Origin: Malacoraja senta
Taxonomy: Eukaryota
Length of the DNA stretch: 64,000 nucleotides
Direction: 5' to 3'
NCBI GenBank assembly: GCA_038087875.1
Contig: CM075991.1
Coordinates: 13,022,001 to 13,086,000, forward strand
Shown one piece after another: positions 5,795 to 63,471 of this stretch. The translations under genes were made by a program, and so were the position numbers. The notes beneath the pieces were generated by a model. The model saw nothing but the letters and a program-made list of their open reading frames with translations. It searched no databases and had not been told where the DNA came from. Each line of letters starts with the position of its first letter. Within the stretch, counting starts at the first letter, position 1.

Positions 5795-5894
5795 CAGTCT
5801 GAAGAAGGGTCTCGACCAGAAATGTCACCTATTCATTCTCTCCAGAGATGCTGCCTGTCCCACTGAGTTACTCCAGCTTTTTGTGTCTATCTTC
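5795..5894 (+). mobile_element. Penelope-derived short repeat with hammerhead-like motif (single arm)
   Basis: CTGAAGAAGGGTCTCGACCAGAAATGTCACC followed by the family body ending GTGTCTATCTTC. Confidence 0.75.
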
Positions 5895-6700
5895 CAGCAA
5901 CAGTGTAGGTAATAAACACAACAGCTTTAAGCAATACAGAGTGTTTCAATCAGCACGGGTTACTTTTAGTCAATGATTGTGACTCTTGAAATAATCACTT
6001 ACTAATGTGAACAAAACACTTAATTGGCACTGCTTCAAAATACAGATCTTTGTAGAAAGCAAGCTGTGTATGCAAACCACACCAGGTCAATTCCATTTCC
6101 CACAACCAGTAAGAAGGCTGATGGTATGTTGACCCTTATTACAAGAGGATTTGAATACAAGAAATGTTGGATTCCGATTAATTTGATGGGACCACATTTA
6201 GAATATTATGCACAGGTCCACGTGTAGTTAAAGCAGTAGGTAAACTTGGCATCATCTTGGATATAATCAGTTGAAAGATACAAAAGGTCAAATGGTCTAC
6301 CTCGGCTTCTTTTTCTGCTCTCTTATTAACTTCACCTGGTTATTCATCGTCTCAGAATAAGGAAACAGTCATTTAGAATTGTTTTTCTCTCAAATGTTTG
6401 TGATCCAAAAAGCCAGTGACTACTTGTTTTCTATACTCAGTATACGGACTGACAAATGCTTGGATAGCCAGGGAAGTAAGGGACTTTAAAAAACGGACTA
6501 AAAGTCTATACTAAGAAGAGAACCTGTAGATTTAAGAAAGATATTAAAGGTCAAATATGGTATATGATCTTGAGAAATGTAGAGCAAACAAGGTAAATGT
6601 ATGCACAATAATTGTCAATGTAGCAGGCTAAAGAAATCTCACAGTATCTGACCAGTTTCCCAAAGGCAGCATTATGGTTAAAAAGCCAATACCTTATTTT

Positions 6701-6935
6701 GTGTAGGAAGGAACTGCAGATGCTGGTTTAAACCGAAGATAGAACTAAAAAGCTGCAGTAACTCAGCGGGTCAGACAACATCTCTGGAGAAAATGAATAG
6801 GTGACGTTTCGGGTCGAGACCCTTCTTCAGAGGTTCAGACTGAAAAAGGGTCTCGACCCGAAACATCACCTATTCCTTTTCTCCAGAGATGCTGTCTGAC
6901 CCACTGCATTACTGCAGCTTTTTGTGTCTATCTTC
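6701..6935. mobile_element. Penelope-derived palindromic repeat, two inverted arms, intact hammerhead-like motif on the minus strand
   Basis: Arms ~6735-6830 and ~6840-6935 are reverse complements. Flanks CAATACCTTATTTT (6687-6700) and CAATACTTTATTTT (6935-6948). Confidence 0.85.
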
Positions 6936-9624
6936 AATACTTTATTTTATCAGCTAAGATAGGATATATTATGTAATTTTGTATAAAACATATGTTGGGA
7001 CACAGCTTAAGTTCGATGGATGGTTCGGATCAACACTTTGCAGGAATTATATCACTGTACTGGAGAGGATACAGTCGAGATTTATGAGGAAGTCGCCAGG
7101 ACATTGAATAGGCTGAGGCTATTTTCTGTGGAATAAAGGAAGCTAAAAGAAGGCTTAAATGGGATATATATAATTATGACAAACCTAGATAGAGTAGAAT
7201 GAATATTTTCGCCAGCACGGACAATAGCCAGAGAGCATTGATGTAAAATATTCAGTATGAGGATTAGAGAGGAACTCACCCAAAGGAAGGAAACCATGTG
7301 GAACTTCCTCTCCAACAGGGCAATAGAAACCAAAAGCTGCAGGACAGTTAAAATGTATTTGGATATTCACATTAAGCTCAGTGACCGACACAGCTGTGGA
7401 CCAAGAATTGGAAATATGGATTAATCTGGATCCTTCTGTCTTTGGCTGACCCAGATATATGGAGGTGAATGGGCTTTAATTCCGTGGTTCTACAAACCAA
7501 TGGCATGTGGGGGTACAAGACCAGCCATGATCTTATTGAATAGAGGACAGGTTGAAAGAGCCGTGACTTACTCCTGGTCCTGTTTTCTTTTGTTTATATG
7601 TTCTAATTCTGTAAGTAGAGCGGGATATATAGTCTGTAAAAGTAGAAAAATGAGGAGAGAATCTGAATTAAGCTCTGACCAAACAATCAGAGGAAGATGT
7701 AAAATAGACTAATTGGAACATTATTTTTATTTTATGTAATTTCCAGGAGGCTGCTTTAGCAGCATGTTTGCTCCACATAAATAGGAAGCAACGGTGCTGA
7801 GGGTTTATTCTTTTCTGCAGCCTTGTTAAGGATTACAAATATGGAGCTCAAAAAGAGGATGCATTATTGTTAAAATTAAAGACATTAGCATTTGCCATTA
7901 GCTCCCCTTAAATGCGCATCTTCTTCACTTTCTTCTTAAAGGGTTTGCCATATACGGCAAATGTAATCCCATAATGGTTCTGTGATCACTGAAGTGCTGC
8001 AGTTTCATTAGACGTAAATCAATTGTGTAACAAAACCTGAGCGGAAACAAATACACTCTGAAGTCAACCTGCTTGAACCATCCATTAACATATGACAGCC
8101 TTTTATTTGCATATTAGAATAGGCCTGGCCTCTCCAGGGACAGGTTAACCCCAGTGATAGCTACACTGCTAATGAGATTTAATTCCTTAATCCAATAAAT
8201 AAATCGGCATGGCTGTATACAGTGGCTGTTTGAAAACCCTGCCAAGAAATGGCCAAAAGGCCATGATTATAAACAGGTTTACATTCTACCACACATCCAC
8301 TGAGAAAGCTTCACTACTGCTCCGGTACAGTTTATCAATCATGACCAGGCGTTAAATTTGGTACTGTCAATAATTTGTTGTTCAATATTGCCCAAACATA
8401 TGTACATTAGGCCAGTGGTTTCATTCTGTGCCTTGTTGAAAAACCTGAACTGACTGCACAGGATTCTTAAATAAGTGCTTCCAGGCTAACCTCCACAATC
8501 AAATATATACACGGTAAAATGCATACAAAGCTAGCAAGGAAAACCAATAATTACTATCTGTTGGTGCTGTCTTAAGTTATGATAAATTGGATGTTCAAAA
8601 TATTTCACATTTACTGACCCATAATCAGATAGTTTCATGTACACCGCATGAAGATTTTTCTTTTACACTTAATAACTGAAAACACATTCCCAAAGATCTA
8701 ATTTAAAATTTGATATTTTTAACACACTATTAGAATTTTGTTGGCAATCTATTTTATCATGCCAACCATGCATTTTGTTTTAAGAATGTAGCTTTCAAAA
8801 TCATATTATGGATGAACATTTAATCGAAACACTTCATAATGACATGACTAAGTAATGCAGGGAAAAGAAAAATCAGCTTATTAAAATCGTGCATGACAAA
8901 CGACAGCTTTGAATGTTTTGATATTATTTATGGCAATTTATCATGGTTGTTACATTTTTGTAATTTTTGTTAAATAAGTAAAAATACCCAATTTTATCAA
9001 ATAATGATAATATTGAAAAAAAAATATCCTCCAAACTGAACTGAAAATAAAAATTCAATTTCTATTCATGTAACAGGAGACATTTTGGTCTTGATTTTAT
9101 TTTCAAGAGTTTGCTGGCAGTAAAGGGTTGGGTGAGGAGATGTAAAATGAAAATAATTCATTTTCCCAGCAGGTGCAACAGTTCCCCAAATATCAGGACA
9201 TCAAGGGCAGCAATTGGACCCGTGGGCAGGGCACCATCCAGAGAAATGTAGCCCAATATTCAGAAGTTGTGGCTCATGATGCGATTGACATGTAACCTTG
9301 ACTCAAGCGGATTCCCAGACTATCTTCAGCTGAATACACAATAGGAACTGCAGAGAAGACTTTTCACTGTACCACAGTACACGTGAAAATAAAATAAACT
9401 GAACTGACTTGAGTATATCTGATAAACCTCCATTTGATTGAACTTCTCATTACTCAGAATGTAAGCATTCTGCCCATACTCCTCAAGGATAGCTAAAAAC
9501 AAACTGCTGGAGGAACTCAGCGGGTCAGGCAGCGTCCGTTGATGTAAATAGACAGATGACATTTCAAGTCGGGTCCTTTCTTCAGAGAAACACATCAGTA
9601 GGTTTAAACCCATTTGCTTCAATA

Positions 9625-9720
9625 AGGTACACAAAAATGCTGGAGAAACTCAGCGGATGCAGCAGCATCTATGGAGCGAAGGAGATAGGCAACGTTTCGG
9701 GCCGAAACCCTTCTTCAGAC
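9625..9720 (-). mobile_element. Second subfamily of the hammerhead-bearing Penelope-derived repeat
   Basis: Minus strand reads GTCTGAAGAAGGGTTTCGGCCCGAAACGTTGCC. The body resembles the other copies. Confidence 0.7.
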
Positions 9721-12700
9721 TTTTTGAATAAGGAGGTGGTGCATGAGTAAAATGACAAGAACATTAATTAACAATTCATAGTTCCTCAGTGAATGTGATA
9801 AGATCATCAAAATAATACAATTTATAAAAGAATGAATGTTTTCTGTGTAGAAATGGTGAAAAATTAAGTTAATAGAACATGAAATAATATGCTGGAGAAA
9901 CGTAGCAGGTTGAGCAGCATCTGTGGGGACAAGAACCAACAATGTTTCAGGTAGAAAGCCTACAAACATACTATGAGTTCCTCCACCAAATTGTTTGTCG
10001 TACCAAATTCGAGCATCTGCAGTCTCTAGTGTCTTCAGTTAATAGAACATATTTGACTATGACCACGTTGTGTGAAGTAGTTAGCATCAGCTGATATCTG
10101 CCGTTATGCAGTGCCTCAATCTCGGCCGTGGTGTTACTGCGACACATGGCAAAGTCACATTTTGATGAGGCTCTATATCTCTCATGAGTATTCTTAATCA
10201 AAGAATCAAGGGCTGTTACAAAGGCTATTCACTTGGAGGAATCAAGTGTATCTAAGCAGTGGAACGCCTATTCAATGGAATGTAGTAAGAAACAATTTGG
10301 TGTTAAATAGACTTCTTAGGCTGTCATTAAAGCAGCAGGTGCTTCCCACTCAGAGGGTAGGTCTTGCACTCACAACTCAGTAACACGTTTAAAAAGCAGT
10401 CTGCTTGGGATTGAGAACAGGTTGCTACTTTACCCATTCTAACTATGATAGGATGTGGCGGAAGAAATGCGAGGAAAGAGGTAAAATGCAAGAAAACAGC
10501 ACACATTGAAAACAAAATGAGTGTAGAAACAAGAAATAAGGAAAAGATTAAGGATAAAGAATTGTTGCAGAATTTGCAACAAAATTGTGTGGAAAGTTAA
10601 CATCCGCTTAAATCAACTGATCTGTATAAATTATTGCCTCTTCCACCTCTGATAGAGAAAGCCCATGGATCTCTATATTTTAATTTCAACCAGTGGTAAC
10701 ATGGAAGTGATTTCCCCAAACCTATTTATTTACAGCAGGAATCACGATAGGAACGTTACATTGGAAAACATTTACTAATTTAGATTTTAGTGAATTAGTT
10801 TTAAGGAATATTTTTGAGCAGCATGATTTTTCATAATTACTGTAAGGTAAACTATTGATGTACCTGTAAAATTATTTTATTTCTTTACCAATCTTAAAAT
10901 GCTGGATATTTGAATCTCTAATTTGTTACATTCCACAAGTAGACCAGCTATAAGAAACAGATCCTCCATAGTCAGTACCTACACTGATGATAGTTATGAA
11001 AAAACACATTTCATCAAATGTAATATTTTCATTATATATTTATTTCACTTGGTCATATAATCCTAGATCACATGACTATCACCAGGTGAGTGGATGGTTT
11101 GGCAGGAGTGAGGTGAGGAGGTGACAATGCCTTTCATAAACGATCTCCATGCTAAGTATGATTCAATTCCTATTGATTACTACCAAATCTGACTTACCAA
11201 ATTGCTCGCCTGCTTGAAACCAAAGCAATGTAAAATGTGAGGCACAGATTTAGAAAATGCGTCGACTCAAGTCAAATTGATGAAGCAAAGCCTACACTAG
11301 GGTGCAGGGAGACTTTTTCTTTGCAAACATGGGCTCATTCATCCAACCTGCATGCGGAATTTTGATTAGGCAACGTTAAATGATTCTTAGTGTTTTATGG
11401 CTTTGCAGTGGATGGGGTTAAAGTCCAAATGAAACAAATTTCACAAGATACAATATCACCCTTCAAGGCATAATGTACAGTAAAAATACTTGCTGCTTTA
11501 TTTAAATTATATTTGGGTGAATGTAATGATGGAGATTATAAAATATGCTTAATTGTTGTATTTAGTACATATTCTATATCTGGTTTAGAAGTAAATGGCA
11601 GCAGTGAGTTTTATTTTAACTGTCAATGTGGAATCAGAACTAGTAACGGCAGCAGCAAGTGTTGCCTGTGATGTTCATGTCCATTGTGTTTCCTTTGTTG
11701 CCATGACTTCATGCTCCAGTTAGATTTCTGCATTTCCCTCTTCTTTTGTCTGGGCGGCCAAACGGTAATGGCTAAAGAGTTATGTTTACATTGTGAATAC
11801 ATTGGGGTGGAGACGGTTAATTTCAATGTTTTTAATACACTCTTATGTGACAAATAAGCACTCGCTGTCTCTTGGTGTGTCCCTTTCAACAATTTCTTTC
11901 GAGAGACAAATACCTAACATTTGAGAACTAACCGCCAGTGCATCACATTATGTAGCAATGCAAAAGTCAACCTCTAATCATTACTGAACATCCTACTGTA
12001 TTAAAAGGTGTCACACATAAATCTATCTGTATTTATTTCTGGACAAAAAAAAAACAAGGCCCATCCTACACCCCTAAAAAATTATGTGATAAAAGATTGG
12101 ACAAGTTCACTTTGGTGGTCGGAAATGTGAACAGAATGATCCATATATACTGAGGTTTTAGGGGGGAAAAAGTACAGAAATCTACAAATAATTTAAATTG
12201 TATAAAACAAAGTTAATTTATCAACATTGTAATTGCACAAAGAGCATTTAAATTTTTTCTCATTGATTGATGTGTGGACAATAATTACTGGAACCTGACT
12301 CCAGCAAAACTTGGGCAGATATTAATTTCTTTACTTAGATCCCCTGACCTCTTGTCCGTCTACCATTTTAAACTAGTCATGCTACCATCAATGGAATATT
12401 TACTGATAATCACTTTAGTTATCTACCTCTTTTCACCCATTACAGAAACTTTGTGTTCAATGATTTTAATTAGTGGGCAAATATGAATAAATATTTATGA
12501 TACAAAAAATCACAACACCACAAACTTTTTGTCCCTGAGTTTCATGGTCCCCGAATAAAAATGGTAAGCATTACAAGAATATTACTGACTCATGCAGAAT
12601 GCTCGGATCTTGCTTGCATCTATCAGAGAACTCTTTCTACTTTGCACTAACCTTTAGCCCCCAAGTACTGGTTTTCTCAGTAACCTATTAATACCACTCT

Positions 12701-14639: not shown

Positions 14640-14767
14640 TGAAGAAAGGTCTCAACCCGAAACGTCACCCATTCCTTCTCTCAAGAGATGCTGCCCGTCC
14701 CGTTGAGTTACTCCAGCATTTTGCATCTATCTTCGATTTAGCAAGCATCTGTAGTTCTTTCCTATAC
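14640..14767 (+). mobile_element. Penelope-derived short repeat (single arm)
   Basis: TGAAGAAAGGTCTCAACCCGAAACGTCACC followed by the family body ending GCATCTGTAGTTCTTTCCTATAC. Confidence 0.75.
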
Positions 14768-15828: not shown

Positions 15829-15930
15829 CGTGCAGGAAGGAACTGCAGGTGCTGGTTTAAACCGAAGATAGACACAAAAAGCTGGAGTAACTCAGCGGGA
15901 CAGGCAGCATCTCTGGAGAGAAGGAATGGG
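15829..15930 (-). mobile_element. Penelope-derived short repeat, truncated before the ribozyme motif
   Basis: GGAAGGAACTGCAGGTGCTGGTTTAAACCGAAGATAGACAC...GAATGGG, as in the other copies. Confidence 0.75.
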
Positions 15931-15996
15931 CAACACAAATAATGTTTGCTGAGCCTTCCACACCCATTGCCCTGCCCTTAGACCCACTCACCTACC

Positions 15997-16451
15997 CCCA
16001 CACAAATGCACCCACACACACACAAACAAACACACACACAGCCACATACACACACACAACCACATACACACACACACACATACCCACACACATACATACA
16101 CACACACACAAACACAGCCACACACACACATACCCACACACACAAACACACCCACACACAGCCACATACACACACAAACACAGCCACATACACACAAACA
16201 CACCCACACAAACACAGCCACACACACACACAGAAACACACCCACACACACAAACACAGCCACACACACACACACACACACACACAGCCACACACACACA
16301 CACACACACAGCCACACACACACACACACAAACACAGCCACACACACACACACACAAACACACCCACACACACACACACACACAAACACACCCACACACA
16401 CACACAAACACAGCCACACACACACACCCACACACACACACAAACACAAAC

Positions 16452-16484
<33 letters not shown>

Positions 16485-19162: not shown

Positions 19163-19329
19163 TGTAGGAAGGAACTGCAGATGCTGGTTTAAACCGAAGA
19201 TAGACACAAAAAGCTGGAGTAACTCAGCGGGACAGGCAGCATCTCTGGTGAGAAGGAATGGGTGATGTTTCGGGTCGAGAACCTTCTTGCCTGTCCCGCT
19301 GAGTTACTCCAGATTTTGGTGTCTATCTT
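19163..19329. mobile_element. Penelope-derived palindromic repeat with 15-bp direct flanking repeat
   Basis: One full arm plus a partial inverted arm. TATCTTGATGATTTA at 19148-19162 and 19324-19338. Confidence 0.85.
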
Positions 19330-20110
19330 GATGATTTAGATGATTAAAGAATCAACAACTGCTGGCCTCTGCAGTATTAGCTAACAACATTTGTTTGGGT
19401 TACAAAAGAAGATAGGAGGATAAATATTTAAAGTGATAGATTTTGAACATCTTACAGGAGAACAGATAGATTTAGTGGAGAGGTTTAGTGATAGAAATAA
19501 ACCTTAGTGCCTCAACAGAAACAGGCACAGCTGTTTAGAATGTAATATTAAGGATGTACAAGAGGGCAGAAATGGAGAAATGCAGATATCTGAGAAGATT
19601 GTATTCCTGAAAAACCATAAAGAGATAAGATTGGGTGAAAATGGAACGCTACAATGTAAGTCAGTGTAGTTGGGTTAAAGTTAACGTAGGTATGAAGCAG
19701 TCAGGACACTTAATCCTATTCCTGTTGTTTTTCTTGGAAGTACTAATTTGTTTGAAACTGTGAATCTTAATATTGTAAAGTTATTAATGAAGGAAATGGA
19801 GACCAAACTATGGCAATGGAATTACACCCCAGTAAGAACCTCAACTTTTTCAAATAATGGAGAGGTGTAAAGATACAAAGATCAGAGAACTTCACTGTAT
19901 CTATGATTACTTTCATGTGATAAAACAAGCCATGATTATGTTACTTACCTTGATTGAATCGTGCCAAATGCTGACATTATAAACGTGTGAGAAGTCGTCA
20001 AAATCACAATATTGCCGACTTTTTAACACCTTACATGACATAGATTATATGCACTATACATATATTTACTTCACCTTATAATGCGGTGACGGTATGTCAA
20101 TACGAAAGAT

Positions 20111-20208
20111 GTCTGAAGAAGGGACTCGACCCGAAACATCACCCATTTCTTCTCTCTAGAGATGCTGCCTGTCCCGCTGAGTTACTCCAGCTTTTTGTGT
20201 CTATCTTC
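20111..20208 (+). mobile_element. Penelope-derived short repeat (single arm)
   Basis: GTCTGAAGAAGGGACTCGACCCGAAACATCACC followed by the family body ending GTGTCTATCTTC. Confidence 0.8.
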
Positions 20209-20523
20209 AAAAGAGTAACTGTTGGGTCTGTATTCCTGCGACTAATGTTTATTTTATTAAACAAAATAAAATGAGGCAAATATGTGAAAACATAAAAGCA
20301 CCTGTTTAGAAATTGATTAGCCCCATACCCTTACTTCAATACAAATATCTGCAGGTAATCCCATTCTACAGGGTCAGGTGGTAGCACATGGTGGAAACAC
20401 AAGTGGAGCCATTCAGATGTTAGTATCTATGTGGAGATAAACCCAGGCTGATCAAAAAGTATTATTTATTACCTAGGAAGAGGATAATCTTCTCCAGGGA
20501 CAGCGATGCTGTCAGTAAACTGA

Positions 20524-25740: not shown

Positions 25741-25820
25741 CTGTCCAGACCCGCTGAGGTACTCCAGCTTCTTGTATCTATCTTCGGTTTAAACCAGCAT
25801 CTGCAGTTCCTTCATACACA
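25741..25820 (+). mobile_element. Penelope-derived short repeat, 3' fragment
   Basis: GACCCGCTGAGGTACTCCAGC...GGTTTAAACCAGCATCTGCAGTTCCTTC. Confidence 0.7.
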
Positions 25821-28680: not shown

Positions 28681-28982
28681 AGTTCATGTCAAGTGTTAAT
28701 CTGTCTCATGCTCTTCCTTCCTCTGGTAGTTCATGCCAATTTGTCACCATACAATTTTTTTTTTTATGCCACCACTGGTTCTTTTGACATTTACCTGGTC
28801 CTTGGCTCCTCCACCATACGTTTCTGTCTAGTTGCTCCATCCATGCCCTTCATGATTATAAATATCTCTCACGTGCTTGAAATCTCTGCTCTGGGAAGAA
28901 GAACAACCCTGCATCTCTATTCTGTTCTCAGTCCAGAATTAAAATCCTCCATCCCTGGAATCAACACTATTCATTATTTTCT

Positions 28983-29083
28983 GAAGATAGACACTAAATG
29001 CTGGAGTAACTCAGCAAGACAGGCAGCATCTCTGGAGAGAAGGAATGGGTGGCGTTTCTGGTTGAGACCCTTCTTCAGACTGA
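28983..29083 (-). mobile_element. Penelope-derived short repeat (single arm)
   Basis: GAAGATAGACAC...GAGACCCTTCTTCAGACTGA. Confidence 0.8.
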
Positions 29084-30086
29084 CCTTTTCTGTATCCTTT
29101 TCTTTAGTGTGGTGCCCAGAATTGGACTTGTGTTGTAGCTGAAGCAGTGTTTTATAAAGTTCCTCATTACTTCCTTGATCTTGTCATCTCTATCTTTTGT
29201 AAAGAAGCCAGGATTTCACATACTCATTTTAGCCAGCATATTTTAAGAGCATTTTCTTTGAATAGTTCATGATGACATGGCATTGGTTTGAATGGCTAGT
29301 TCCACATTGTATGATTTATGTGAAACAGTTTGGAGGAAATAATTTAGTTTAGGCTGCAATAATTCCTGGTAGTTCTTAAAAATTATCCAGCTATTGACCA
29401 ATATGCTGTCTGAACTGGAGTCAGTCCCATGTTCATACTTGTATAAGTGCTGCTAGTCCAATCACTTCATTAATAGTTTTCACAGTATGACCAGCCAGCA
29501 TGACTTAAAATCCTGCAAAAAGTGCTGCTGTGTGTATTCGATGGCTTTTAAGTGATTGTTCACTTTATTCACCTAACCATTACTTTGTGCAGTGAGAAAG
29601 AACACGCAAACTGCTGACAAAAGTTCTAAATCCCTTTTTAAGAGTTTCTAGCTGTCTCCTTTTGAGTATCTCTGAAGCTAATCTTTGAATAAGAGAGAGT
29701 GGAGTGGAGCCTGGAGTGTTACTCCTGCCGGGTTAATAGGGGCTAATGAAGTTTGGGTTCCACTGTTTGTTTTCTTAATGAGTCTAACGCAGAAACAAAG
29801 GTTACCGTGAAGCACAGAGCTAAAGTGATGGGCCCCTGTTGTGAATGCATTTTGTATTGCTTTGGTTGATGGTTTTATATCACTAACTGTAATAGATGTT
29901 TTGAATTCGTATATCAGTGAAATGATCTTTAAAATATTGTCTCACTTCCTATTAAAATGTATTGTCCACATGGGGTTTTAATAGTGCTCTGTGATGGTAT
30001 GTGATCTACAGACTTCAAAATATTCCTGATAGACTCATCTTTCTGGCCCTTTTCACCCATTGTTGTCCTGCACAGATTATAAAGAA

Positions 30087-30183
30087 TCTGAAGAAGGGTC
30101 TCGACCAGAAACGTCACCCATTCCTTCTCTCCAGAGATGCTGCCTGTCCTGCTGAGTTACTCCAGCTTTTTGTTTCTATCTTC
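30087..30183 (+). mobile_element. Penelope-derived short repeat (single arm)
   Basis: TCTGAAGAAGGGTCTCGACCAGAAACGTCACCC followed by the family body. Confidence 0.8.
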
Positions 30184-31639
30184 ATTATAAACTATGAGTT
30201 GGGCAACAATTTGGCATGAGAAATGAAGGAGTAGAAAATCTTATCACATTCTGAGCCATCATACATTAAACATAACAGTGGTTTTGCATAGTCATCTAAC
30301 AGTTAATTAGTATTTCCAGGATTTTGATTTAGGGAAGAATGTTTGCCAAGGTCCCAGGAGAAGTTTCATAAAACATGGAGACTTTAACATAAATGAATCT
30401 AATATGGAAAAAGACATGAGATGACTTGAAAATAAAATATGGAGTAAAGGCAGGAAGATTAAAAGGAGCTTAATCCAAGGATTGAATATATAGAATCAAT
30501 GTGTGTATACAAAGTAATAAAGGGCTGATATTGTAAGATTCTCTCGGGGAATAAAGATAAAAGGCAAAAAGTGGTGAAGTGGTGGCTCACTGGAGCAGTT
30601 AATGATGACGGAGATTAAAAGGAAACTCTTAGATCTGATCTAGAGCTACTTACAATCTACATTGATTATTTTATTGAGGGCAATGTTAAATTCACCCATT
30701 CTGATATTGATTTGAAGCTAACCGAGATGTTAAGATGTGAGAAAAATGTAAAGATCTGCAAAGAGTTAAAATTGGTTATCTGGTTGTCCAAGAAAATGCC
30801 AAATGAAGGATAATGTGGGTACGTGTGAAATGATGCTGTGGTATGGAGAATGGAACAGTTGAATAATGTTAGAAGATGCTTGGGCAGGCTTTCAGTATCA
30901 GCAAAGGGTAACCAGGAAATGAATAAGGGGATAGTTATGCATGAGGAGAAATGATCAAAAAATATTAAACCCAATTGCAAAAGACGACACATGTGGAAAG
31001 GAAGAGATTACTGAAAGTAAACTGGGGTCCTATAGATTCTAGTAAGAAGAAAAAGAAACTACAATGAAGATTCAAGAAAGGATAGAGATGTTAAACAAAT
31101 GCCTACTTTCAGAGAACATAAAAACAAAGGAGGAATTGTGGGGGACCAAGTGTACACGAGAGTGAGGAAGTAGTGTACATTAGTTAAAAAAATACTCGAG
31201 CTAAAAGCTGGTAACCGCAGACTTAACGGCCCCTCACTATCGTTTTAAATGAGATTCTGCAGTCAGTGTTGGTAAAGGATTTCATCTTTCTAAACCCTCT
31301 TGATTCTAGAGTGGACCTCATGTATCGAAAGATAGGAAGTGTAACCTTGCTAAATAAGATAAAAGAGAGCGATGGAATATAAGTGAAATAAGTTTCACCA
31401 AAAGGAAGAAAAATGTCAAAATGTTTTATTAAGGACGTAGTAACAGGCCCGGGAAAGGTCAGGTAAGTCAGTATGGTTTTGTGAAAGGAAAATCGTTCAG
31501 GGAAAAATCTAATTGAGATTTTACTGGCTAAAGATTGGAGAGTAATAATAGATAAGTAGGAACTAGTGAATATTGAATATTTGTATTTTTAGAAGGAATC
31601 TGATGAGTAATCATACCAGTATGGAAATTGTAGGATTTT

Positions 31640-32825: not shown

Positions 32826-33005
32826 TTCAAAGATTACATATGGAAGTTGTACACAGGTTAGGTCTTATCTAAAAGAAGATATATTATCTTTAGAAGTGTT
32901 GGAAATAGAAGGTTATACTGGATTGAATCCTATGGTGAGAGGGCAATTTGGAAAGAATGAGTCTATATTTTTTTCAGTTTAGAAAAATGAATAATAATCA
33001 TATTG

Positions 33006-33137
33006 TAGACACAAAAAGCTGGAGTAACTCAGCGGGACAGGCAGCATCTCTGGAGAGAAGGAATGGGTGACGTTTCGGGTCACGACCCTTTTTGGCTATC
33101 TTCGGTTTAAACCAGCATCTGCAGCTCCTTCTTACAC
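33006..33137. mobile_element. Penelope-derived palindromic repeat with 13-bp TSD
   Basis: AATAATCATATTG at 32993-33005 and 33138-33150. Confidence 0.85.
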
Positions 33138-34351
33138 AATAATCATATTGAATTATATATTTTTTTTAATCCATTTTGGCAGGGTGGATCATGATACTGA
33201 CTCCCTTGACTGGAAAGTCCAAGAGTAGGAGTTATGATATCAGATTGAAGGTTTGGTCATATAGATTAGAAGTACATAATAGCAGCAACATTATGCTTGA
33301 CCATGAAGTGTTTGATGCATGTATTGAAAACTGGGACTAATAGAGTGTGTGATCACATGATGCAGGAATAGGATGGGAATGTGGAGTTGATGAAGAGTCT
33401 TTCCCATATTGGAATTGTGGAGTAGGATAAGAGATGAATGGTCTTCTATTATTGGGAACCAAGAGAGCGCTCTTGGCAATATCACATCTTCATACTGAAC
33501 CGCAATGCTGGCACACATTTCACCTTCCTAGAGACACAAGAAACTGGAGATACTGGAATCTTGAGCAATACACAAAGTACTTTGGAACTCAGCAGGACAG
33601 GCAGCATCTGTGGAGATAATGAACAGATTCGGTTTGGGACTCTTCTTCAAAATGATTTAATATTGCCAAGTGTTTACTGTGGAGAGAAAAAACAATTGGC
33701 AAGACAGATCTACGGAAATGTTTATGCTTCAATCAAGCTTTCTCCAATCCTTCTTCACCAGCGTTCTCTTTGATCCTCTGCAAAACTGAAAAGGGAAGTG
33801 CAGGGCCATGTAAAATCACCCTTGGCACCACTTCAACCATTTATGTTTTAATTAAAACAGTTAATATTTGCAGCCATGGAACTTGAGTTGTATAAATCCT
33901 CAATGTAGAAAGGCTTTATACTTTTTTAAGTAAGATCCATTATGTCAGGTATACCTACAATACAGGCTGAAGTAGAAATGTTGCCAGGCTATGATTAACC
34001 TTTAAATCAGCAGTTGTCACAATGCCACCCTGCCGTCTGTATTGAATCCCATCATGGCAGAAAGAGAAATAGTGAGATCTTCAAAGACTCAGTTTTAACT
34101 GGTCTCCAATTTCTTTCATGTACAGAAATGTTTTGTGCATAACATAAATTACATTTTAAAATGCAATCACTAAATGGGATTGAATCTTTTGTTACCTAAA
34201 TTAGCTCTGGGCCCTAACATATATGTGTACAGTGATGATAAACAACATGGTTTGAGGCTCTGTACAAAATTCTTCTGTGCATTCGAAGTCTGAATAATTA
34301 TAACTCTTGTTAATTAAGGTTTTAAGCAGACAATTGAGGCTGGCCTTACCT

Positions 34352-34958
34352 TTAGAGTCATAGAATGATACAGTGTGGAAACAGGCCCTTCGGCCCAACT
34401 CGCCCACACTGACCAACAATGTCCCAGCTACACTAGTCCTACTTGCCTGCGCTTGGCCCATATCCCTCCAAACCTGTCCTATCCATGTACCTGTCTAACT
34501 GTTTCTTAAACGATGGGATAGTCCCAGCCTCAACTACCTCCTCTGGCAGCTTGTTCCATACACCCACTACCCTCTGTGTGAAAAAGTGACCCCTCGGATT
34601 CCTATTAAATCTTTTCCCCTTCACCTTAAACCTATGTCCTCTGGTCCTCGATTCCCCTACTCTGGGCAAAATACTCTGTGCATCTACCCGATCTATTCTT
34701 CTCATGATTTTATACACCTCTATAAGATCTCCCCTCATCCTCCTGCGCTCCATGGAATAGAGACCCAGCCTACTCAACCTCTCCCTATAGCTCACACGCT
34801 CTAGTCCTGGCAGCATCCTCGTAAATCTTTTCTGAACCCTTTCAAGCTTGACAATATCTTTCCTATAACACGGTGCCCAGAACTGAACACAATATTCTAA
34901 ACGAGGTCTCACTAACATCTTATACAACTGCAACATGACCTCCCAACTTATTATACTC
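34352..34958 (-). mobile_element. CR1 LINE, 5'-truncated 3' end
   Basis: ORF 34439-34990: LYKMLVRPRLEYCVQFWAP, RRRMRGDLIEVYKIM, RTRGH, FFTQRVVGVWNKLP. CR1 3' UTR follows. Confidence 0.9.
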
Positions 34959-34962
34959 AAAA

Positions 34963-35189
34963 GCCTTGAGTAACCCAGCGGGATAGGCATCTCTGGAGAA
35001 AAGGAATAGGTTGCATTTTGGGTTGAGACCCTTCCTCAGTTCATTCCCCTGACTCTCAGTCTGAGGAAGGGTCTTGACCCAAACGTCACCTATTCCTTTT
35101 CTCCAGAGATGCTGCCTGTCCTGCTGAGTAACTCCAGAACTTTGTGTCTATCTTCGATTTAAACCAGCACCTGCAGTTCCTCCCTACAC
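34963..35189. mobile_element. Penelope-derived palindromic repeat with short spacer
   Basis: Inverted arms meet at ~35040-35057. Plus-strand motif CTGAGGAAGGGTCTTGACCCAAACGTCACC. Confidence 0.8.
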
Positions 35190-41529: not shown

Positions 41530-41845
41530 CTCGGGATACAGGGAGGATGACTAGGGTGGGGGCAGGAGGGGGGAGAGAGGGAATGCAGGGCTTATTTGAA
41601 ATTAGGGAAATCAATGTTCATACTGCTGGGCTGTAAGTAGCCCAAGCGAAATATGAGATGTTCCTCCAATTTGTGTGTGTCCTGACTGTGGCAGTGGAGA
41701 AAGCCCAGGACAGAAAGCTCAGTATGGGAATGTTTGGCAACTGGGAGATTGCTTGGGCCAGGGCGGACTGAGTTGTAAGTGTTCAGCCAATCGATCGCCC
41801 AGTCTAAGCTTGGTCTCTCTGAAATAAAGGAGCCCATTCTACGGG
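41530..41845 (-). mobile_element. Penelope-like element remnant (C-terminus of GIY-YIG endonuclease plus 3' UTR)
   Basis: LPVAKH...LSVLGFLHC...KLEEHLIFRLGYLQPSSMNIDF* resembles the Penelope endonuclease C-terminus. C-rich UTR follows. Confidence 0.7.
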
Positions 41846-43485: not shown

Positions 43486-46233
43486 CTGTTGGAGTTAAAA
43501 AGCAGCATTATTGATGTACTTTGAGGAACTGAAGTCTGATTACTTTCAAATTATTTTTGCCTTGCTGATTGGTTGGGGAGCAAGCACTAAGTGAGAGGAT
43601 CGAACAAAACGAAAACTGGTGCAATTACTTTATTCAGGAAGTCCACAAAGGGGCAGAGATAAGGTAGCAGGACATGTTATTTTTCTCAGTTTAAGGAAGT
43701 CTGGATTGGCTGGGTTTGTTTTCCTTGGAGAGGAGAAGACCAATGGGGACTGATGAAGAGGTACAAACATGAGGGGCATAGTGGGGTGGACAGTCGTGAA
43801 CTTTTTGCCATATGTGGTGCAACGAGAAAGACACAGATTTAAGGTAAAGAGGAGGTCAAATTAAGCCATTTTTTCACCCGGGGGCATAATTCTTGGCACA
43901 TTTAAAACTGAGATGAAGAGAAAGTTATTATTTCCAGATGAGGTAACTCTCCACCCTAGAGGCCCTTGGAGACCCAGTCGTCGAGCAGATTGAAGGTAGG
44001 TTGTTAAATGTTTTGGGCACGGAATCAGAGGATGTGGAGATGAGGAAGGTGAACCTGATGTAGTGGAACAGTCATGCTCTTCCTGAATGACGGAGACTCA
44101 AGCATTAGATTTGAAGCTTTTGGCATTGTTACAGAGCTCTAGGGGGCATCTGGTGGATGTGTGAATATGGCAACATAGTGCTTAATATACCAGATTAGCA
44201 TCCAGAGTTCTAGACGCTGATTTTGAGACATAGAAATATGAATCTCACCGTGTCATAGAACGTAAAACATTCGTCAGCTGGGAAATTTAAATTCAAGCAA
44301 TTAACTTAGCCAGCAATATAAAAACTAATCCCAATTAAGAACTGTGATTCTGTTTACAGTAGAATATTTTTACTGTCACCAATTTGTCATAAAATCCCAT
44401 CTTGTTCACAAATGTCTGCAGGGTAGGAATTCTGTTGTCCTTACTTGACTGTGACTCCACATTAACAAATATGCTTGCCCTAAACCACCTTCTTAGTGCA
44501 GACTGAAAGAAGGCATTGGGCATTGTTAGTGACATTAACTTCCTGTAAGTGATAAAAATGTTTGTCATGGTACTCTTGTCATGATTCGTGGTTTCTGATA
44601 AAAGATCATTGACATGAAAGGGAGTATTTCCAGCATTCCATATTTTTACTTCAGATTTCCAGGCATTTGCAGGCTTAATGGATTACGTTTCTTTTCTTGC
44701 TAGCAGTTTTTTTGCATGTGTGAGATTCTAGTATCCAAATGAATAATACATTTAGAGGCACAAGGAACTGCAGATGCTGAAATCGTGAGCAAAACATGGG
44801 AGGTACTGGAGGAATCTGCGGGTCAGAATCTGTGATGGGAACAGAGGTGAGGTTTCGAGTTGTCACCCTTCTTCAGTTTTGTTTTTTTGAATACTTACAA
44901 AGTTTCATCATATAGCTTCAGAGGGCATCTTCTTATCGAGTCCACACACAAGCTTAGAAGTTGTTCAGCCAGAGCTGAACACACTTCTCTACATCCGCAT
45001 ACTGTGGTGTCTGTCTTATCGCTTCTTGTGCTTCTTGTGCGTGGTGGTGGAAAGATTGGTGGAAACAGGGCCGCGACGTGAACGTTCTTTCCTTGACCCC
45101 TCAGAGGGCATAATTCAAACTAAAGACACCACACCTTGAAACAGTGACATTCCCATACTTTAATTTTATGTCATTACTTCAAGTGTTGGCAATTATATTG
45201 GGTTTATTTATGGAAAGTTTATAGATTCCAGAAAAAATCATACAACGAAGAACTGACACTGGTGGAAGAAAGATTATCAGTAGTGAAAGCTGGTCGGACA
45301 GCTGGTGCTGCAGAATATGGCCAAGAATGTTCAGTGCCCTTTCCCAGTCCAATAGGGCATTCCCTGTACAGGAAGAACAACAAAGGCATTGTGGCAAGGA
45401 GCCACTTGATTTTACAATGGGGAAAGCTGCTCTGGACACTGACAAGCACCAACACCTACTTTTACTTTGCTATCTTCATATCAGCAAAAGAATAATGACA
45501 CGCATTGCTGCTATTCATGTGCTTAATGTGACTCAAGATTAATGATCTGCTTCATCTATTCAGTGTAACTCATAACAGCAACAATCTCTATTTGCTACTT
45601 CCTTTCTACAGGGATGAACTAAGCATCTCCAAAACAGACATGTTCAGACTGTAGAATAAAGCAAATGACCCACCAATCTATTGAAGCCATTAACCTCTCC
45701 TTGTATTGATATTTAAAAGAAATTTGACAAGCCATGACTAGAAAGCTTCTGAATCACTGTAAATTATATTGTAATTAGAATGACATGAACTAGACAATGG
45801 AATGAAGGTTTCTACATTATGACTGTATGGTGAGGCTGCTGCCATGTTTGTCCTCGTGACAGTGTGGGTTCCCCCAGGCTCCAGTTTCCTCTCACACGTG
45901 GTAGGTTAATCACCTCTAGTCTTTAAGTGAGTGGTATAATCTGGGAAGAGTTAATGGGAATATGGGGAGAATGGGGAACAGGACAGAATAAACCAGGCAA
46001 TAGGATTGCTCTGTGAGCCAGCAAAGATGGGAAAACATCAATTACTGAAAACTTAAATTGCTCAACTATTAATCTGCAATTTAATTCACCTTGTACATTT
46101 AGTCTTGCTGGGGTTCATCCCCCCTGGTAATTAATAACAAATAAGAGGTCAGCAAGGTGTTCTGTAGGAGGAGCACTGTTGGTACTATTTGTCATTCTAA
46201 GTTTTTGTTACAGTAAAGCTTAGATGATACTTA

Positions 46234-47410: not shown

Positions 47411-47492
47411 TGTCTGCCGAAACGTCACTGATTCCTTCTCTCCTGAGATGCTGTCTGACCCGCTAAGTTACTCCACCATTTTGTGTCTATCT
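47411..47492 (+). mobile_element. Penelope-derived short repeat (stem II deleted), target of an L1-like insertion
   Basis: GTCTGCCGAAACGTCAC...GTGTCTATCTT. Confidence 0.7.
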
Positions 47493-52237: not shown

Positions 52238-53089
52238 CTATGGAACATAGGAAAGCAAGAATTAGAAATAGCTACTGCACTGGAACAAATGTTACTGCAC
52301 TAGAAATTGCATAGGATCTAAAAAAGGCATGTTAAAATGGTGCTGCTCTCTAGCACACTAGTTTTACAGAGGCCCTGTGGAATACAAGGCAAGGCTCAGC
52401 CTTTGGGCACAGAAAGGCATTACTTCAGCTACCCCTGCCATAGTTGCATTAGTGGCAGAATTCAGTTGGGTGTGGGGATGCATGATCAGGTCATTAGTGA
52501 TGAGACAAAAGACAATAGCTGCTGGAGTAGGCCATTCGGCCCTTCGAGTCAGCACCACCATTCAATGTGATCATGGCTGATCATCCATGAGAATGGGTAA
52601 GGAATTCTAAATATGAAAAGTCCTTTTTAACACCACCTTCATATCTCCATCAGAAAACTGTTCCACAACCCCTCTCATACGCTGCTGTGTCACAATTGCC
52701 TTTGACTAACTTTGTGCAAGCAATCATTCTCTGACTACAAGCTCCCTGAGATCAAGTTGTCACTGTGCATGCAACCACCCATTAACCCACATCCTTCCTC
52801 TATAACTTGTAGACTCTTAATGTTGCCATGGCAAGGTCTTGGAGAACTCAGAGGTAAATTAGTTTGGCCATCTGCAACTATAGTTCCCAAATTGTTATTA
52901 AAAGTAACTGTTGATTGCTAATATTTCTGCAGACAGCACAGTGGCAACTAATTATGTAGGTCCTGGGATGTTTAAATTATGATAGTAATTTGATCCAACT
53001 CAAGAGGTTGATCAAAATAACCCATAAGTGCTGGAATAACCCAGCGGGTCAGGCAGCATCTCTGGAAAAGATTGACAGATGATGTTTTG

Positions 53090-53885
53090 AGTAGGTTGAT
53101 CAGCTAGGTTATTATGCCGAGAAATGGCAAATGGTGTTTAATTGGCATAATTGTGAGTAGTTGTATTTCGGCAAGTCAAAGCTTGGTGCGGGGCTCACAA
53201 CGAACAGAAGGGCCCTAGAGTATGTTGCAGAGCAGAGAACAAATATATAGCTCCTTGAAAGCTACGTCACAGGTAGACAGGGTGGTGAAGAATGCATTTG
53301 GCAGGCTGGCCTTCATCGGTTAGGGCAATGAGCAAAGGAGTTGGGATGTTATGTGGCAGTTGTACAAGATCTTGGTGAGGGAGCATTTGTAGAATTTAGT
53401 TTTGGTTACTCTGCTATAGAAAAGATGGCATTAGATTGGAAAGAGTGCAAAGAATATTTACCGGAATGTTGCTAGGATATGAAGGCCTGAGTAAAAGGGA
53501 AAGTTTTGGCATGGTAGGACTTCATTCCTTGGACTGTAAGGCGATTGAAAGGTGACTTTATATAGAAGGGTATAAAATCATGTGGGTCATAGATAAGGTG
53601 AATCATTTTCTGGAGGGTATATGTGTAAGGTGAGATGGGAACATTTTAAAAGGGACCTGAGTGACAAGTCTTTAACACAGGATATTTGGAATGAGCAGCC
53701 AGAAGAAATGTTTGAGCAGGTACAATTACAACATTTAAAAGACTTTTGGGCGGTACATGGATAAGATAGGTCTAAGGGATATGGGCCAAACGCAGGCAAA
53801 TGGGAATAGCGTAGATGGGGCATCTTGGTGGACGGGTGAATTGGGCTGGTGCCTGTTTCTCTGCTGTAATACTCAATGACTCTAG
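53090..53885 (+). mobile_element. Degraded CR1 3' portion
   Basis: Decayed KWQMVFN, VDRVVKNAFG, LYKILVR and a CR1 3' UTR. Confidence 0.75.
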
Positions 53886-62887: not shown

Positions 62888-63243
62888 CTGTATCAAGGCA
62901 AATAAAATAACAGTCTGTTAAGAATACAAAGCGCTGTAATCACGTGGTATTCTCCTCTTCCACCATCATTTCAGCAGGGGACTGGAATAACCCCACAAAT
63001 CATTTTAGGAATAGGAAACATCTTTTAGGCCTAACAAACCTATCCTTTTGAAACATCAGCTACATATTCTGTAATTCCTTTCTTCCCACAATAAGATCTC
63101 TAAGGTTGCTTTATGCCAGCCCCTTCACTTACCTTCTCATCGGTATCCTTACTTCCAACTTCTTTCAGATTTCTCATCTGCAGATTGGATCTGATGTGAA
63201 TGGATCACAGCTCGTCATTCTCCCACTCAGTATTCATGCAGAA

Positions 63244-63471
63244 AATAGACACAAAAAGCTGGAGTAACTCAGCGGACAGGTAGCATCTCTGGAGATAAGG
63301 AATGGGTGACATTTCAGGTCGAGACTCTTCTTCAGACTGAGTCTGAAAAAGGGCCTCGACCCACAATGTCATCCATTCCTTCTCTCCAGAGATGCTACCT
63401 GTCTCGCTGAGTTACTCCAGCTTTTTGTGTCTAGCATCGGTTTAAACCAGCATCTGCAGTTCCTTCTCACA
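63244..63471. mobile_element. Penelope-derived palindromic repeat with 16-bp TSD
   Basis: Inverted arms centred at ~63339. CAGTATTCATGCAGAA at 63228-63243 and 63472-63487. Confidence 0.88.

Follow-up and report, generated by a model that had tools for sequence, protein, structure and literature searches.

The commonest interspersed repeat in the window, by which we mean the whole 64-kb stretch of Malacoraja senta DNA that was analyzed, consists of the 3'-terminal ~105-135 nt of a Penelope-like element (PLE); the ORF of this element has reverse transcriptase (RT) homology and, at its end, a GIY-YIG endonuclease domain. The motif carried by these ends is likely a PLE minimal type I hammerhead ribozyme, with a predicted cut after GUC that would occur only when the ACGU palindromes of two copies pair or when the element's own protein assists. 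This type of element is already known; the notable features of the present family are its abundance and the clustering of its 5' ends immediately upstream of the hammerhead core. With many independent insertions preserved, the family forms a natural record of PLE integration, in which we found two probable 3' start sites, an asymmetry of the tail in inverted pairs, discrete 5' ends and no copies of cleaved RNA. This record bears on, without answering, the question of what PLE hammerheads are for.

Direct reading of the minus strand from 6830 to 6800 gave the 31 bases CUGAAGA-A-GGGU-CUCG-ACCC-GAAA-CGUC-ACC, in agreement with the hammerhead sequence proposed in an earlier sequence-only reading of this DNA. 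Both catalytic boxes (CUGANGA and GAAA) are present in the correct order and spacing, helix II (GGGU/ACCC with a tetraloop) is closed by the pair G10.1-C11.1, and helix III has no loop, the palindromic positions 15.2-16.2 (C-G) being followed by U16.1 and H17. Helix I is only 1 bp at this locus (U6831-A6802) because the 5' flank is a 9-nt junction filler; in the family it is GU/AC, that is, 2 bp followed by an A-C mismatch, with GGU (3 bp) in some copies. A search with the 25-nt motif pattern at up to 3 mismatches revealed 10 matches in the 64-kb window compared with none in 100 dinucleotide-preserving shuffles. Only 2 of the 24 copies in the window still match a strict minimal-hammerhead descriptor (at 6830 and 9718, minus strand). 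In an unbiased sample of 264 kb, made up of the window and 20 arbitrary 10-kb stretches, this descriptor gave 11 matches compared with 0 in each of 20 shuffles, all 11 of them from the PLE repeat family, and detected no other minimal-hammerhead family. The hammerhead likeness of the repeat is thus not due to chance. Coordinates of all features are collected in Table 1.

Table 1. Features of the repeat and its hammerhead motif in the window. Model positions refer to the repeat profile; TSD, target-site duplication.
Feature	Position	Strand	Details and basis
TSD, copy adjoining the element 3' end	6687..6700	.	14 nt, 13/14 identical to 6935-6948; element on minus strand
TSD, second copy	6935..6948	.	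Sequence and alignment reading
~35-nt tail, on sense arm only	6701..6735	-	Inverted-repeat arms end at 6735/6935; sense arm continues to 6701
Sense arm, PLE terminal part with hammerhead and tail	6701..6831	-	Model 187-316; profile E 1.4e-26 and alignment
Minimal hammerhead motif	6800..6832	-	Letters, pattern and strict descriptor; fits consensus of PMC4209133 supplementary Fig. S3
Core box CUGAAGA	6830-6824	-	Window sequence
Extra A	6823	-	Window sequence
Helix II strands GGGU / ACCC	6822-6819 with 6814-6811	-	4 bp
Loop II CUCG	6818-6815	-	Tetraloop
GAAA box	6810-6807	-	Window sequence
C, G, U, C	6806, 6805, 6804, 6803	-	CG palindrome, then U and H17=C
Predicted cut	between 6803 and 6802	-	ACC at 6802-6800 next
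Junction filler between arms	6831..6839	.	9 nt; inverted-repeat analysis
Inverted arm without tail	6840..6934	+	Model 183-288; pattern, inverted-repeat and profile searches
Solo copy, no tail	5795..5901	+	Model 184-290; profile
Copy	9489..9586	-	Model 187-283; profile
Copy, subfamily B form	9615..9721	-	Model 185-291; helix II GGGU/GCCC, triplet GUU; strict descriptor matched; pattern, profile, descriptor
Copy	9884..9961	-	Model 195-273; profile
Solo copy with tail	14640..14764	+	Model 189-314; 8-nt TSD; profile
Copy without core	15835..15934	-	Model 213-312; profile
Head-to-head pair	19165..19331	.	Minus arm 19288-19165 (model 191-314), plus arm 19288-19331 (model 241-284); profile
Solo copy, no tail	20111..20214	+	Model 186-289; profile
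Copy without hammerhead part	25745..25816	+	Model 243-314; profile
Solo copy, no tail	28979..29083	-	Model 183-287; 7-nt TSD (by eye); profile
Solo copy	30085..30202	+	Model 185-302; 8-nt TSD (by eye); profile
Copy	32999..33093	-	Model 191-285; profile
Copy, older subfamily C	33541..33657	-	Model 181-307; profile
Head-to-head pair	34951..35184	.	Minus arm 35039-34951 (model 188-279), plus arm 35042-35184 (model 170-312); profile
PLE ORF-end remnant	41547..41832	-	GIY-YIG region 41832-41610 and first 123 model positions (41666-41547); profile
Copy	44762..44876	-	Model 188-310; profile
Copy, motif 3' half only	47417..47492	+	Model 206-281; profile
Copy	52995..53092	-	Model 204-302; profile
Head-to-head pair	63232..63468	.	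Minus arm 63345-63232 (model 177-292), plus arm 63338-63468 (model 183-313); 10-nt TSD; profile

The position of the repeat within its parent element was established from 20 loci picked solely for protein similarity. In 19 of them the ORF stop is followed by the motif at a distance of ~110 nt (the exception is L051; the L064 motif has lost 12 nt, and two of the loci, L050 and L057, duplicate each other almost exactly), and a further ~75-100 nt separate the motif from the two alternative 3' ends. At L033 the motif follows the end of a GIY-YIG ORF (Pfam GIY-YIG 30.5 bits, cut-off 22.6), and L068 aligned by tblastn to residues 165-739 of a 740-aa RT and GIY-YIG ORF; the comparator ORF scored 27.5 bits with Pfam RVT_1, under the 29.6 cut-off (E 3.1e-06), with the RT motif FLDD present. 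Upstream of the ORF, a hammerhead in a 5' pLTR would be expected as a further copy of the repeat; no profile match was found there in the near-full-length elements L094, L100, L104, L106, L108 and L109, a small sample of possibly solitary, non-tandem insertions, and in L096 a copy on the same strand lies ~640 nt ahead of where the ORF is inferred to start. The attribution to Penelope-type minimal hammerheads with a loopless palindromic stem III was supported by the ORF linkage, the alignment over the RT region and the insertion signatures described below. The proposal of a non-coding family was not; the repeats are instead what extreme 5' truncation leaves of a coding PLE, frequently inserted as inverted pairs.

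These results bear on the possibility that the motif is a chance look-alike in an ordinary SINE or MITE unrelated to PLEs, which we regard as very improbable. Such a likeness would be eased by the many degrees of freedom in the motif (an extra A is allowed, stem III has no loop and there is almost no stem I), and the flagged locus is a long hairpin resembling a foldback MITE; against this stand the contiguity of the repeat with the GIY-YIG ORF in the protein-selected loci, the empty shuffles, target-site duplications that are long and variable with no fixed length, and a tail dimorphism and head-to-head pairs that are PLE signatures. A SINE or MITE reading, raised by the 96-nt foldback, was accordingly dropped given the ORF linkage and the variable target-site duplications. 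No Rfam hammerhead model matched at the gathering threshold in the window or at E up to 10 in 6650-6990, which would also suit a chance origin; this null is uninformative because the same models miss the three-stem hammerhead of L043, a positive control that remained unmatched at E up to 1. Folding of the monomer was no better than that of shuffles (z = +0.8). The same genome holds another PLE family, unrelated to this one, whose type I hammerhead has all three stems and folds as the minimum-free-energy structure; that hammerhead shares the extra A and has a closing G-C pair, with a different helix II.

The flagged copy forms one half of an inverted repeat with 96-nt arms (6735-6830 and 6840-6935), and the locus 6701-6934 as a whole is a head-to-head inverted pair of PLE ends. 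Its one-sided tail resembles the optional PLE tail of 30-40 bp reported in PMC8557442 and PMC11167929. The inverted arm has a decayed hammerhead of its own at 6840-6870, with core G8 and G16.2 both changed to A, and the length and sequence of the junction vary among 29 full copies aligned. The same architecture recurred across the 264 kb, in which the profile identified 116 copies. Head-to-head pairs numbered 20 compared with 1 tail-to-tail pair, and the tail was confined to one arm in 14-15 of the 20 (13 of 17 at a stricter threshold). The 3' ends were bimodal, with 61 copies ending at model 271-295 and 46 at 301-320. Exact target-site duplications of at least 8 nt flanked 27 of 107 units, including 19 of 51 pairs, compared with 8 of 531 mismatched controls, and their length varied from 8 to 16 nt. 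Taken together, the bimodal 3' ends, one-arm tails, head-to-head pairs and target-site duplications agree with the PLE signatures reported by Craig et al. 2021 and Frangieh et al. 2024 (PMC11167929). A palindromic-junction model, in which the arms join at a 9-nt near-palindrome overlapping the CUGA box, was also considered; it explains a subset at most, with both arms starting at 178-192 in 6 of 17 unbiased pairs.

The pairs could alternatively matter as long RNA hairpins that give rise to small RNAs (microRNA-like or siRNA precursors), in which case the hammerhead likeness would be irrelevant. We consider this very improbable: the pair at 6701-6934 does fold back over 96 nt and microRNA models gave weak matches (mir-734, 34.9 bits, E 2.4e-05), but every such match is far under its gathering score (100 for mir-734), the pairs are explained as by-products of PLE insertion, and solo copies outnumber them (74 of 116 matches are unpaired).

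The family is very high-copy, as had been proposed, and denser than the suggested one copy per 4-5 kb: the profile gave ~1 copy per 2.3-2.7 kb, corresponding to ~5% of the sampled DNA. The profile identified 24 copies in the window, among them all 13 other places listed in the sequence-only reading as the same repeat; its description as the most abundant short repeat held for interspersed repeats, but three local tandem arrays exceed its exact word counts. Some window copies contain only part of the motif (the copy at 47417 begins at model 206, those at 19288 and 33093 at 191). Extrapolation from the 264 kb gave an estimated 0.6 million motif-spanning copies genome-wide, with intact descriptors on the order of 80,000. 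If this estimate holds, the several hundred thousand copies with the motif would rank among the largest single-family stocks of ribozyme motifs in one vertebrate genome; the figure is far above those of PMC4209133 for coelacanth (~4,000) and Xenopus (~9,000), although the descriptors differ and the counts are not strictly comparable. Truncation at the 5' end was strong, with only 9 of 116 copies reaching the ORF. The 5' ends were nevertheless discrete, since 54 of the 116 copies start within model 181-190, just upstream of the ribozyme core, and only 2 at 211-220, the bins around the predicted cut site, a distribution that random truncation would not give. Same-strand neighbors less than 400 nt apart accounted for 25 of 258 matches. 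A possible separate lineage of short copies was considered from a haplotype table, in which T279/G285 types seemed commoner in short copies; the ORF-linked sample was, however, picked by similarity to one copy, and TG-type copies do reach upstream of 178.

Comparison of subfamily consensuses provided modest support for constraint on the hammerhead block. Between subfamilies A and B, model 188-214 contains 1 difference in 27 positions, in loop II, compared with 44 in 227 in the flanks (one-sided Fisher test, P = 0.029). Two further differences, C to U at H17 (U in subfamily B) and A to G at 1.1, both fall at tolerated positions, and every core position and all four helix II pairs are identical in the two consensuses. 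The excess conservation of the hammerhead across subfamilies considered in the sequence-only reading was present against all flanks but not against the downstream positions 217-316 alone (10/99 differences), relative to which the block is not significantly better conserved; all of model 186-316 is conserved between subfamilies, hammerhead included. The stem of helix II is kept across subfamilies, with U-A changed to U-G in some B copies, but its loop differs (CUCG, UUCG, CCCG); the extra nucleotide at model 195 is A in 163 of 175 copies. Apart from CpG sites, decay is uniform among individual copies, which speaks neither for nor against constraint, since decay after insertion is neutral. In the older subfamily C, CA was read at positions 207-208 in 13 copies, CG in 10 and TG in 4; this excess of CA is a hint that copies with A at core G12 may have formed a lineage that went on multiplying.

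The conserved block could descend from a PLE hammerhead and be kept for another role, as an RT binding or entry site, promoter or leader, with no useful cleavage left. We judge this unlikely. Conservation of model 186-316 as a whole, beyond the hammerhead, would fit such a role, as would the CA excess at core G12, the retention of the motif in copies, the rarity of starts at the cut site and the 2-bp helix I; a helix I of 2 bp is, however, also found in published PLE hammerheads of Drosophila virilis, Culex and Oikopleura (PMC4209133). A binding site would need neither the extra nucleotide nor the palindromic 15.2-16.2 positions, and the A and B consensuses share every core position and all four helix II pairs while loop II, H17 and position 1.1 vary. 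Among PLEs, only Poseidon_Ac (PAc) of Anolis carolinensis has been studied in vitro (Frangieh et al. 2024, PMC11167929); by that account its hammerhead mutants insert normally, the hammerhead being dispensable for insertion in vitro, and its RNA-seq data had no ends at the cut site, but the motif cleaves when the PAc protein is present. Naiad PLEs are described as thriving although they lack hammerheads, which, in the authors' suggestion, may be mere parasites of PLEs (Craig et al. 2021).

The reading of the motif as a PLE minimal hammerhead was further examined against the >80% consensus of 56 metazoan PLE hammerheads, NNN CUGANGAH GN..NC GAAA N-palindrome-N U H NNN (Cervera and de la Pena 2014, PMC4209133). 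The flagged motif fits this consensus in all sequence features except its weak helix I. The order of parts is the same, namely helix I, CUGANGA with the extra nucleotide, helix II with G10.1-C11.1, GAAA, the two-base palindrome, U and H, and the motif shares all three signs of a non-random origin named in PMC4209133 (the extra nucleotide, G10.1-C11.1 and palindromic 15.2-16.2). Helix II lies within the published range of 3-8 bp, and helix II (4 bp), the tetraloop and the CGUC layout recur in the Nematostella (2) example. At 2 bp, the helix I of the present family lies at the short end of the range, compared with mostly 3-5 bp in that set. Placement is also alike, with the repeat at the 3' end of an RT/GIY-YIG element and the motifs mostly solitary on truncated elements, with some opposite-strand pairs. 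Metazoan minimal hammerheads are barely active in vitro (PMC4209133). Our results extend the known minimal-hammerhead families to Malacoraja senta; cartilaginous fish are unmentioned in the main text of PMC4209133, and a literature search for Penelope hammerhead ribozymes in this group found no papers.

Another close comparison is with PAc as described in PMC11167929. Both families have two alternative 3' ends ~30-35 nt apart (the "tail"), a hammerhead 75-100 nt upstream of the sites where copies end, and inverted copies consistent with priming on both DNA strands. By analogy with the Anolis work, the two 3' ends probably represent two internal start sites of reverse transcription, and the inverted pairs probably arose by target-primed reverse transcription from both DNA strands. 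We infer that, as for PAc, the RNA that is copied is the uncleaved form, since the motif is retained whole in copies and starts at the cut site are very rare. The two differ in that the PAc hammerhead overlaps the ORF start at the pLTR-ORF junction whereas the present one lies ~110 nt after the stop codon, and protein-assisted cleavage is shown for PAc (PMC11167929) but is a prediction for the present family. Our best guess is that cleavage, a putative activity here, would serve 5' leader removal or the separation of tandem transcripts, and that insertion itself would not depend on it.

The discrete 5' ends also raise the possibility, tentative and rather unlikely, that the multiplying unit is a self-contained mini-Penelope, an RNA of ~105-135 nt that would run from a few bases 5' of the core to the internal entry sites of the RT. 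In Drosophila Penelope, the promoter is internal and TATA-less, and transcription starts within the pLTR. If pLTR transcription started at the 5' cluster in the present family, every template would begin with the hammerhead as its extreme 5' leader, cleavage would take off the 31 nt bearing the cap and thereby determine whether an RNA is copied, and any 3' pLTR would give read-out transcripts that seed new short copies. Such a unit, if real, would explain the rise of the family to roughly 5% of the genome.

Two other groups of short hammerhead repeats offer points of comparison. Non-LTR retrozymes, reportedly the subject of Cervera and de la Pena 2020 (PMC7229834), are tandem, non-autonomous animal hammerhead repeats. 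The present units resemble them in being short and non-coding with a type I hammerhead, and retrozymes are thought to derive from PLE pLTRs; retrozymes, however, form head-to-tail arrays that give circular RNAs (as described in the preprint of Li et al. 2026, 10.64898/2026.07.22.740005), whereas the present units are single or in inverted pairs with their own target-site duplications. Schistosome Sm-alpha and Sj-alpha are likewise high-copy short retroposons with a type I hammerhead and a weak helix III; according to the review PMC6765202 they are pol III-transcribed SINE-like units with canonical helices I and II, whereas the present unit belongs to a protein-coding PLE, whose end it forms, and lacks any helix III loop.

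Reading of the window sequence confirmed the minus-strand sequence that the sequence-only reading had given for 6832-6798 (table). A 25-nt pattern of the motif, allowing up to 3 mismatches, matched 10 times in the window and 0 times in each of 100 shuffles; a profile search of the window revealed 24 copies of the repeat, and all 13 places listed as recurrences fell inside one of them. The flagged motif is not part of a simple monomer, since it lies within inverted arms of 96 nt (6735-6830 and 6840-6935) that are 90% complementary and separated by a 9-nt gap. The minus-strand arm extends 34-35 nt beyond the other arm, to 6701, and the 234-nt unit 6701-6934 lies between the two copies of a target-site duplication of 14 nt (13/14 identical; 6687-6700 and 6935-6948). 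Helix I of the flagged copy consists of one U-A pair, because the copy begins at the core and is preceded by 9-nt junction filler. Head-to-head pairs of this kind, if transcribed, would fold as long hairpins, and weak microRNA-model matches were seen at 6789-6881 (best mir-734, 34.9 bits vs a gathering score of 100).

Coordinates of the features (window positions unless a locus is named)
Feature	Position	Strand	Remark
CUGAAGA core	6830-6824	minus	window sequence
Extra A	6823	minus	window sequence
Helix II, GGGU with ACCC, loop CUCG	6822-6819 with 6814-6811	minus	window sequence
GAAA	6810-6807	minus	window sequence
CG	6806-6805	minus	window sequence
U and C	6804 and 6803	minus	window sequence; predicted cut at the 6803/6802 boundary
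Decayed second motif	6840-6870	plus	in plus-strand arm; core G8 to A, G16.2 to A
PLE ORF-end remnant	41547-41832	minus	one in window
Local tandem arrays	36399-36801, 20538-20865, 16112-16917		periods 17 nt and 16 nt, plus CA-rich array
Three-stem type I hammerhead of second PLE family	L043 3862-3932 (G000:C1804)		~230 nt upstream of first ORF

The repeat forms the 3' terminus of a Penelope-like element (PLE). At one locus fetched from the genome (L033), the end of a GIY-YIG ORF (30.5 bits, cut-off 22.6) is followed by the repeat including the motif. The 203-aa ORF end of this locus, used as a query, gave 107,298 first-look candidates, and the 150 scored all had E <= 6.5e-78. In 19 of 20 fetched loci, selected on protein similarity alone, the same non-coding end was identified with the motif ~110 nt past the stop codon (L051 was the exception; L050 and L057 are near-identical duplicates); the motif at L064 carries a 12-nt internal deletion. 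Longer copies aligned to the 740-aa ORF of a second PLE family of this genome (L068 to residues 165-739, L069 to 385-739). This ORF has a Pfam GIY-YIG match above the cut-off, an RVT_1 match slightly below it (E 3.1e-06, 27.5 bits vs 29.6) and the reverse-transcriptase motif FLDD in its translation. Taken together, the adjoining ORF end and the longer copies place the repeat at the terminus of an ORF-bearing PLE, and its earlier description as a non-coding family was wrong. The Pfam GIY-YIG search of the genome gave 14,023 first-look candidates. One region of about 27 kb (G000:C14:18285551-18312652) has GIY-YIG matches at intervals of ~1,561 bp, and an open frame of 274 aa accompanies each of them; it looks like a satellite-like array of a PLE fragment.

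Cervera and de la Pena 2014 (PMC4209133, supplementary Fig. S3) aligned 56 metazoan PLE examples; the motif was compared with their >80% consensus, NNN CUGANGAH GN..NC GAAA N-palindrome-N U H NNN, and matches it at each position. It also has all three features that those authors' search did not impose, namely an extra nucleotide after A9, a G10.1-C11.1 pair and a palindromic 15.2-16.2. A strict descriptor (core, 0-1 extra nucleotide, helix II of 4-8 bp, GAAA, and a complementary pair followed by U and H) was run on 264 kb, made up of the window plus 20 stretches of 10 kb that were placed arbitrarily against selection bias. This analysis revealed 11 motifs, all in the flagged repeat family, compared with 0 in each of 20 shuffles. 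The weak point of the identification is helix I, which in ORF-linked copies consists of GU/AC (2 bp) followed by an A-C mismatch and in some copies with GGU reaches 3 bp; a helix I of 2 bp is also found in the published PLE hammerheads of Drosophila virilis, Culex and Oikopleura (PMC4209133). Rfam hammerhead models gave no match at gathering scores, and none on 6650-6990 at E up to 10. This negative result carries little weight, since the same models miss a textbook-shaped three-stem hammerhead elsewhere in the genome. By its sequence, the motif is a PLE minimal hammerhead, a well-described kind, and a predicted ribozyme.

We also examined how the copies begin and end, searching the same 264 kb with a profile 317 positions long that spans the ORF end and the non-coding 3' end (core at 188-194, cut at 215|216). 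Random truncation would spread 5' ends evenly; the 116 matches were uneven, with 54 5' ends at model positions 181-190, immediately 5' of the core, 2 in bins 211-220 around the cut site, and only 9 copies reaching the ORF. Window copies starting at 181-190 include those at 5795, 20111, 29083 and 30085. In solo copies, target-site duplications directly adjoin positions 182-189. The 3' ends fell into two classes (61 copies at 271-295 and 46 at 301-320), indicating that copies end with or without a tail of ~30-35 nt. Adjacent opposite-strand pairs accounted for 42 of the 116 matches, and 20 of the 21 pairs were head-to-head; the single tail-to-tail case was judged not to be a genuine pair. A tail was present on one arm only in 14-15 of the 20 head-to-head pairs (13/17 at a stricter threshold). 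In a larger locus set, exact target-site duplications of at least 8 nt were found for 27/107 testable units compared with 8/531 mismatched controls, and bounded 19/51 inverted pairs as whole units, which shows each pair to be one insertion event. The 236-nt foldback form gave 4,593 first-look candidates in the 1.94-Gb genome (40 of these scored, identity 76-100%). When 29 such copies were aligned with their flanks, the outer ends were sharp, the target-site duplications were 12-15 nt and different in each copy, and the inter-arm junction varied in length and sequence.

These signatures are PLE traits as given by Craig et al. 2021 (PMC8557442): copies heavily truncated at the 5' end, a 5'-truncated inverted copy next to that end, a tail of 30-40 bp that is often present at one end only, and hammerheads in the PLE terminal repeat (pLTR). 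Together with the GIY-YIG ORF linkage and the consensus fit, they bear out the original interpretation of a Penelope-type minimal hammerhead. A 9-nt near-palindrome at model positions 183-191 (TCAGTCTGA) shares bases with the CUGA box and coincides exactly with certain head-to-head junctions (window 6831-6839; L009, L012, L014 and L023). Both arms start at 178-192 in just 6 of 17 unbiased pairs, so the near-palindrome could account for at most a subset of junctions. Past the 3' end of the element, at window 6700 and in genome-wide copy flanks, the loose ends of contigs showed an A/T-rich majority of low agreement, which would be consistent with published reports that PLE endonucleases prefer AT-rich targets.

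Copies of this element appear to derive from RNA still carrying the intact motif. For an Anolis PLE, Frangieh et al. 2024 (PMC11167929) describe reverse transcription beginning at two adjacent internal sites, which explains the tail, and a protein that cuts and extends both DNA strands; by analogy, we infer that this mechanism also applies to the Malacoraja senta repeat. There would be two entry sites for reverse transcription, lying ~75 and ~100 nt 3' of the cut, and from either of them synthesis would proceed 5'-ward through the hammerhead. Nearly half of the time it would stop no more than a few bases beyond the core on its 5' side; an inverted second copy would be primed from the second DNA end in roughly one insertion in three. 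The RNA is predicted to self-cleave after GUC, either through two motifs pairing via ACGU or in a fold held by protein. The 5'-end cluster at 181-190 is most simply read as marking a pLTR transcription start; in published accounts of Drosophila Penelope, transcription begins within the pLTR, from an internal promoter that lacks a TATA box (PMC2377424, PMC6765202). Alternatively, reverse transcription may halt at a protein-bound hammerhead.

Support for constraint on the motif was modest. Between the consensus sequences of subfamilies A (159 copies) and B (23 copies), the two best-sampled master lineages, block 188-214 differed at 1/27 positions, a loop II base, compared with 44/227 in the flanks (one-sided Fisher P = 0.029); however, the downstream region 217-316 was likewise well kept (10/99 differ). 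The changes that define the two groups, at H17 (C to U) and 1.1 (A to G), are ones that hammerheads tolerate. Single copies (185) showed even decay except at CpG sites, which is expected and uninformative. In subfamily C, an older lineage with loop CCCG (e.g., window 33541-33657 and L080 9149-9266), 13 copies have CA, 10 have CG and 4 have TG at the CpG dinucleotide containing core G12. This surplus of CA hints at a G12 to A, dead-core lineage that may have kept amplifying. The monomer had no stable fold except helix II (z = +0.8 vs shuffles). Minimal hammerheads of metazoans cleave poorly in vitro, dimers included (PMC4209133), and the Anolis PLE hammerhead requires the protein of the element, is dispensable for in vitro insertion and has a cut site that is not marked by RNA-seq ends (PMC11167929). 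Catalytic activity of the motif is a prediction.

The second, unrelated PLE family exists as ~7.47-kb tandem arrays (L043, also L044), in which a 579-aa ORF lies upstream of the 740-aa RT/GIY-YIG ORF and has a GDSL-lipase-like match that is weak and below cut-off (E 0.0036). The hammerhead of this family has helices I, II and III of 8, 4 and 5 bp, is the fold of lowest free energy for its 71 nt, and shares the extra A with the flagged motif but has a different helix II; Rfam found nothing on it at E up to 1. Thus, PLE lineages of this genome retain hammerheads differing in sequence.

The family is notable for its scale and for discrete 5' ends beside a ribozyme motif. In the arbitrary stretches (200 kb), 92 profile matches covered 5.2% of the sequence, with at least one match in 19/20 stretches; in the window, coverage was 3.9%. 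As rough figures from this small sample of 20 stretches, ~0.9 million copies are extrapolated, ~0.6 million of them spanning the motif. In contigs from three organisms (one run each) aligned to 5601-7200, the summed depth of repeat bins exceeded that of unique bins 10^5- to 10^6-fold in 3/3 runs, a ratio that is not a copy number. Contigs of organisms B and C, ~5% divergent from the window, bridge unique flank into the solo copy 5795-5901 and the pair 6701-6934, so both insertions are likely older than the split of these organisms. In exact 12-mer counts, the three local tandem arrays of the window exceed the PLE repeat.
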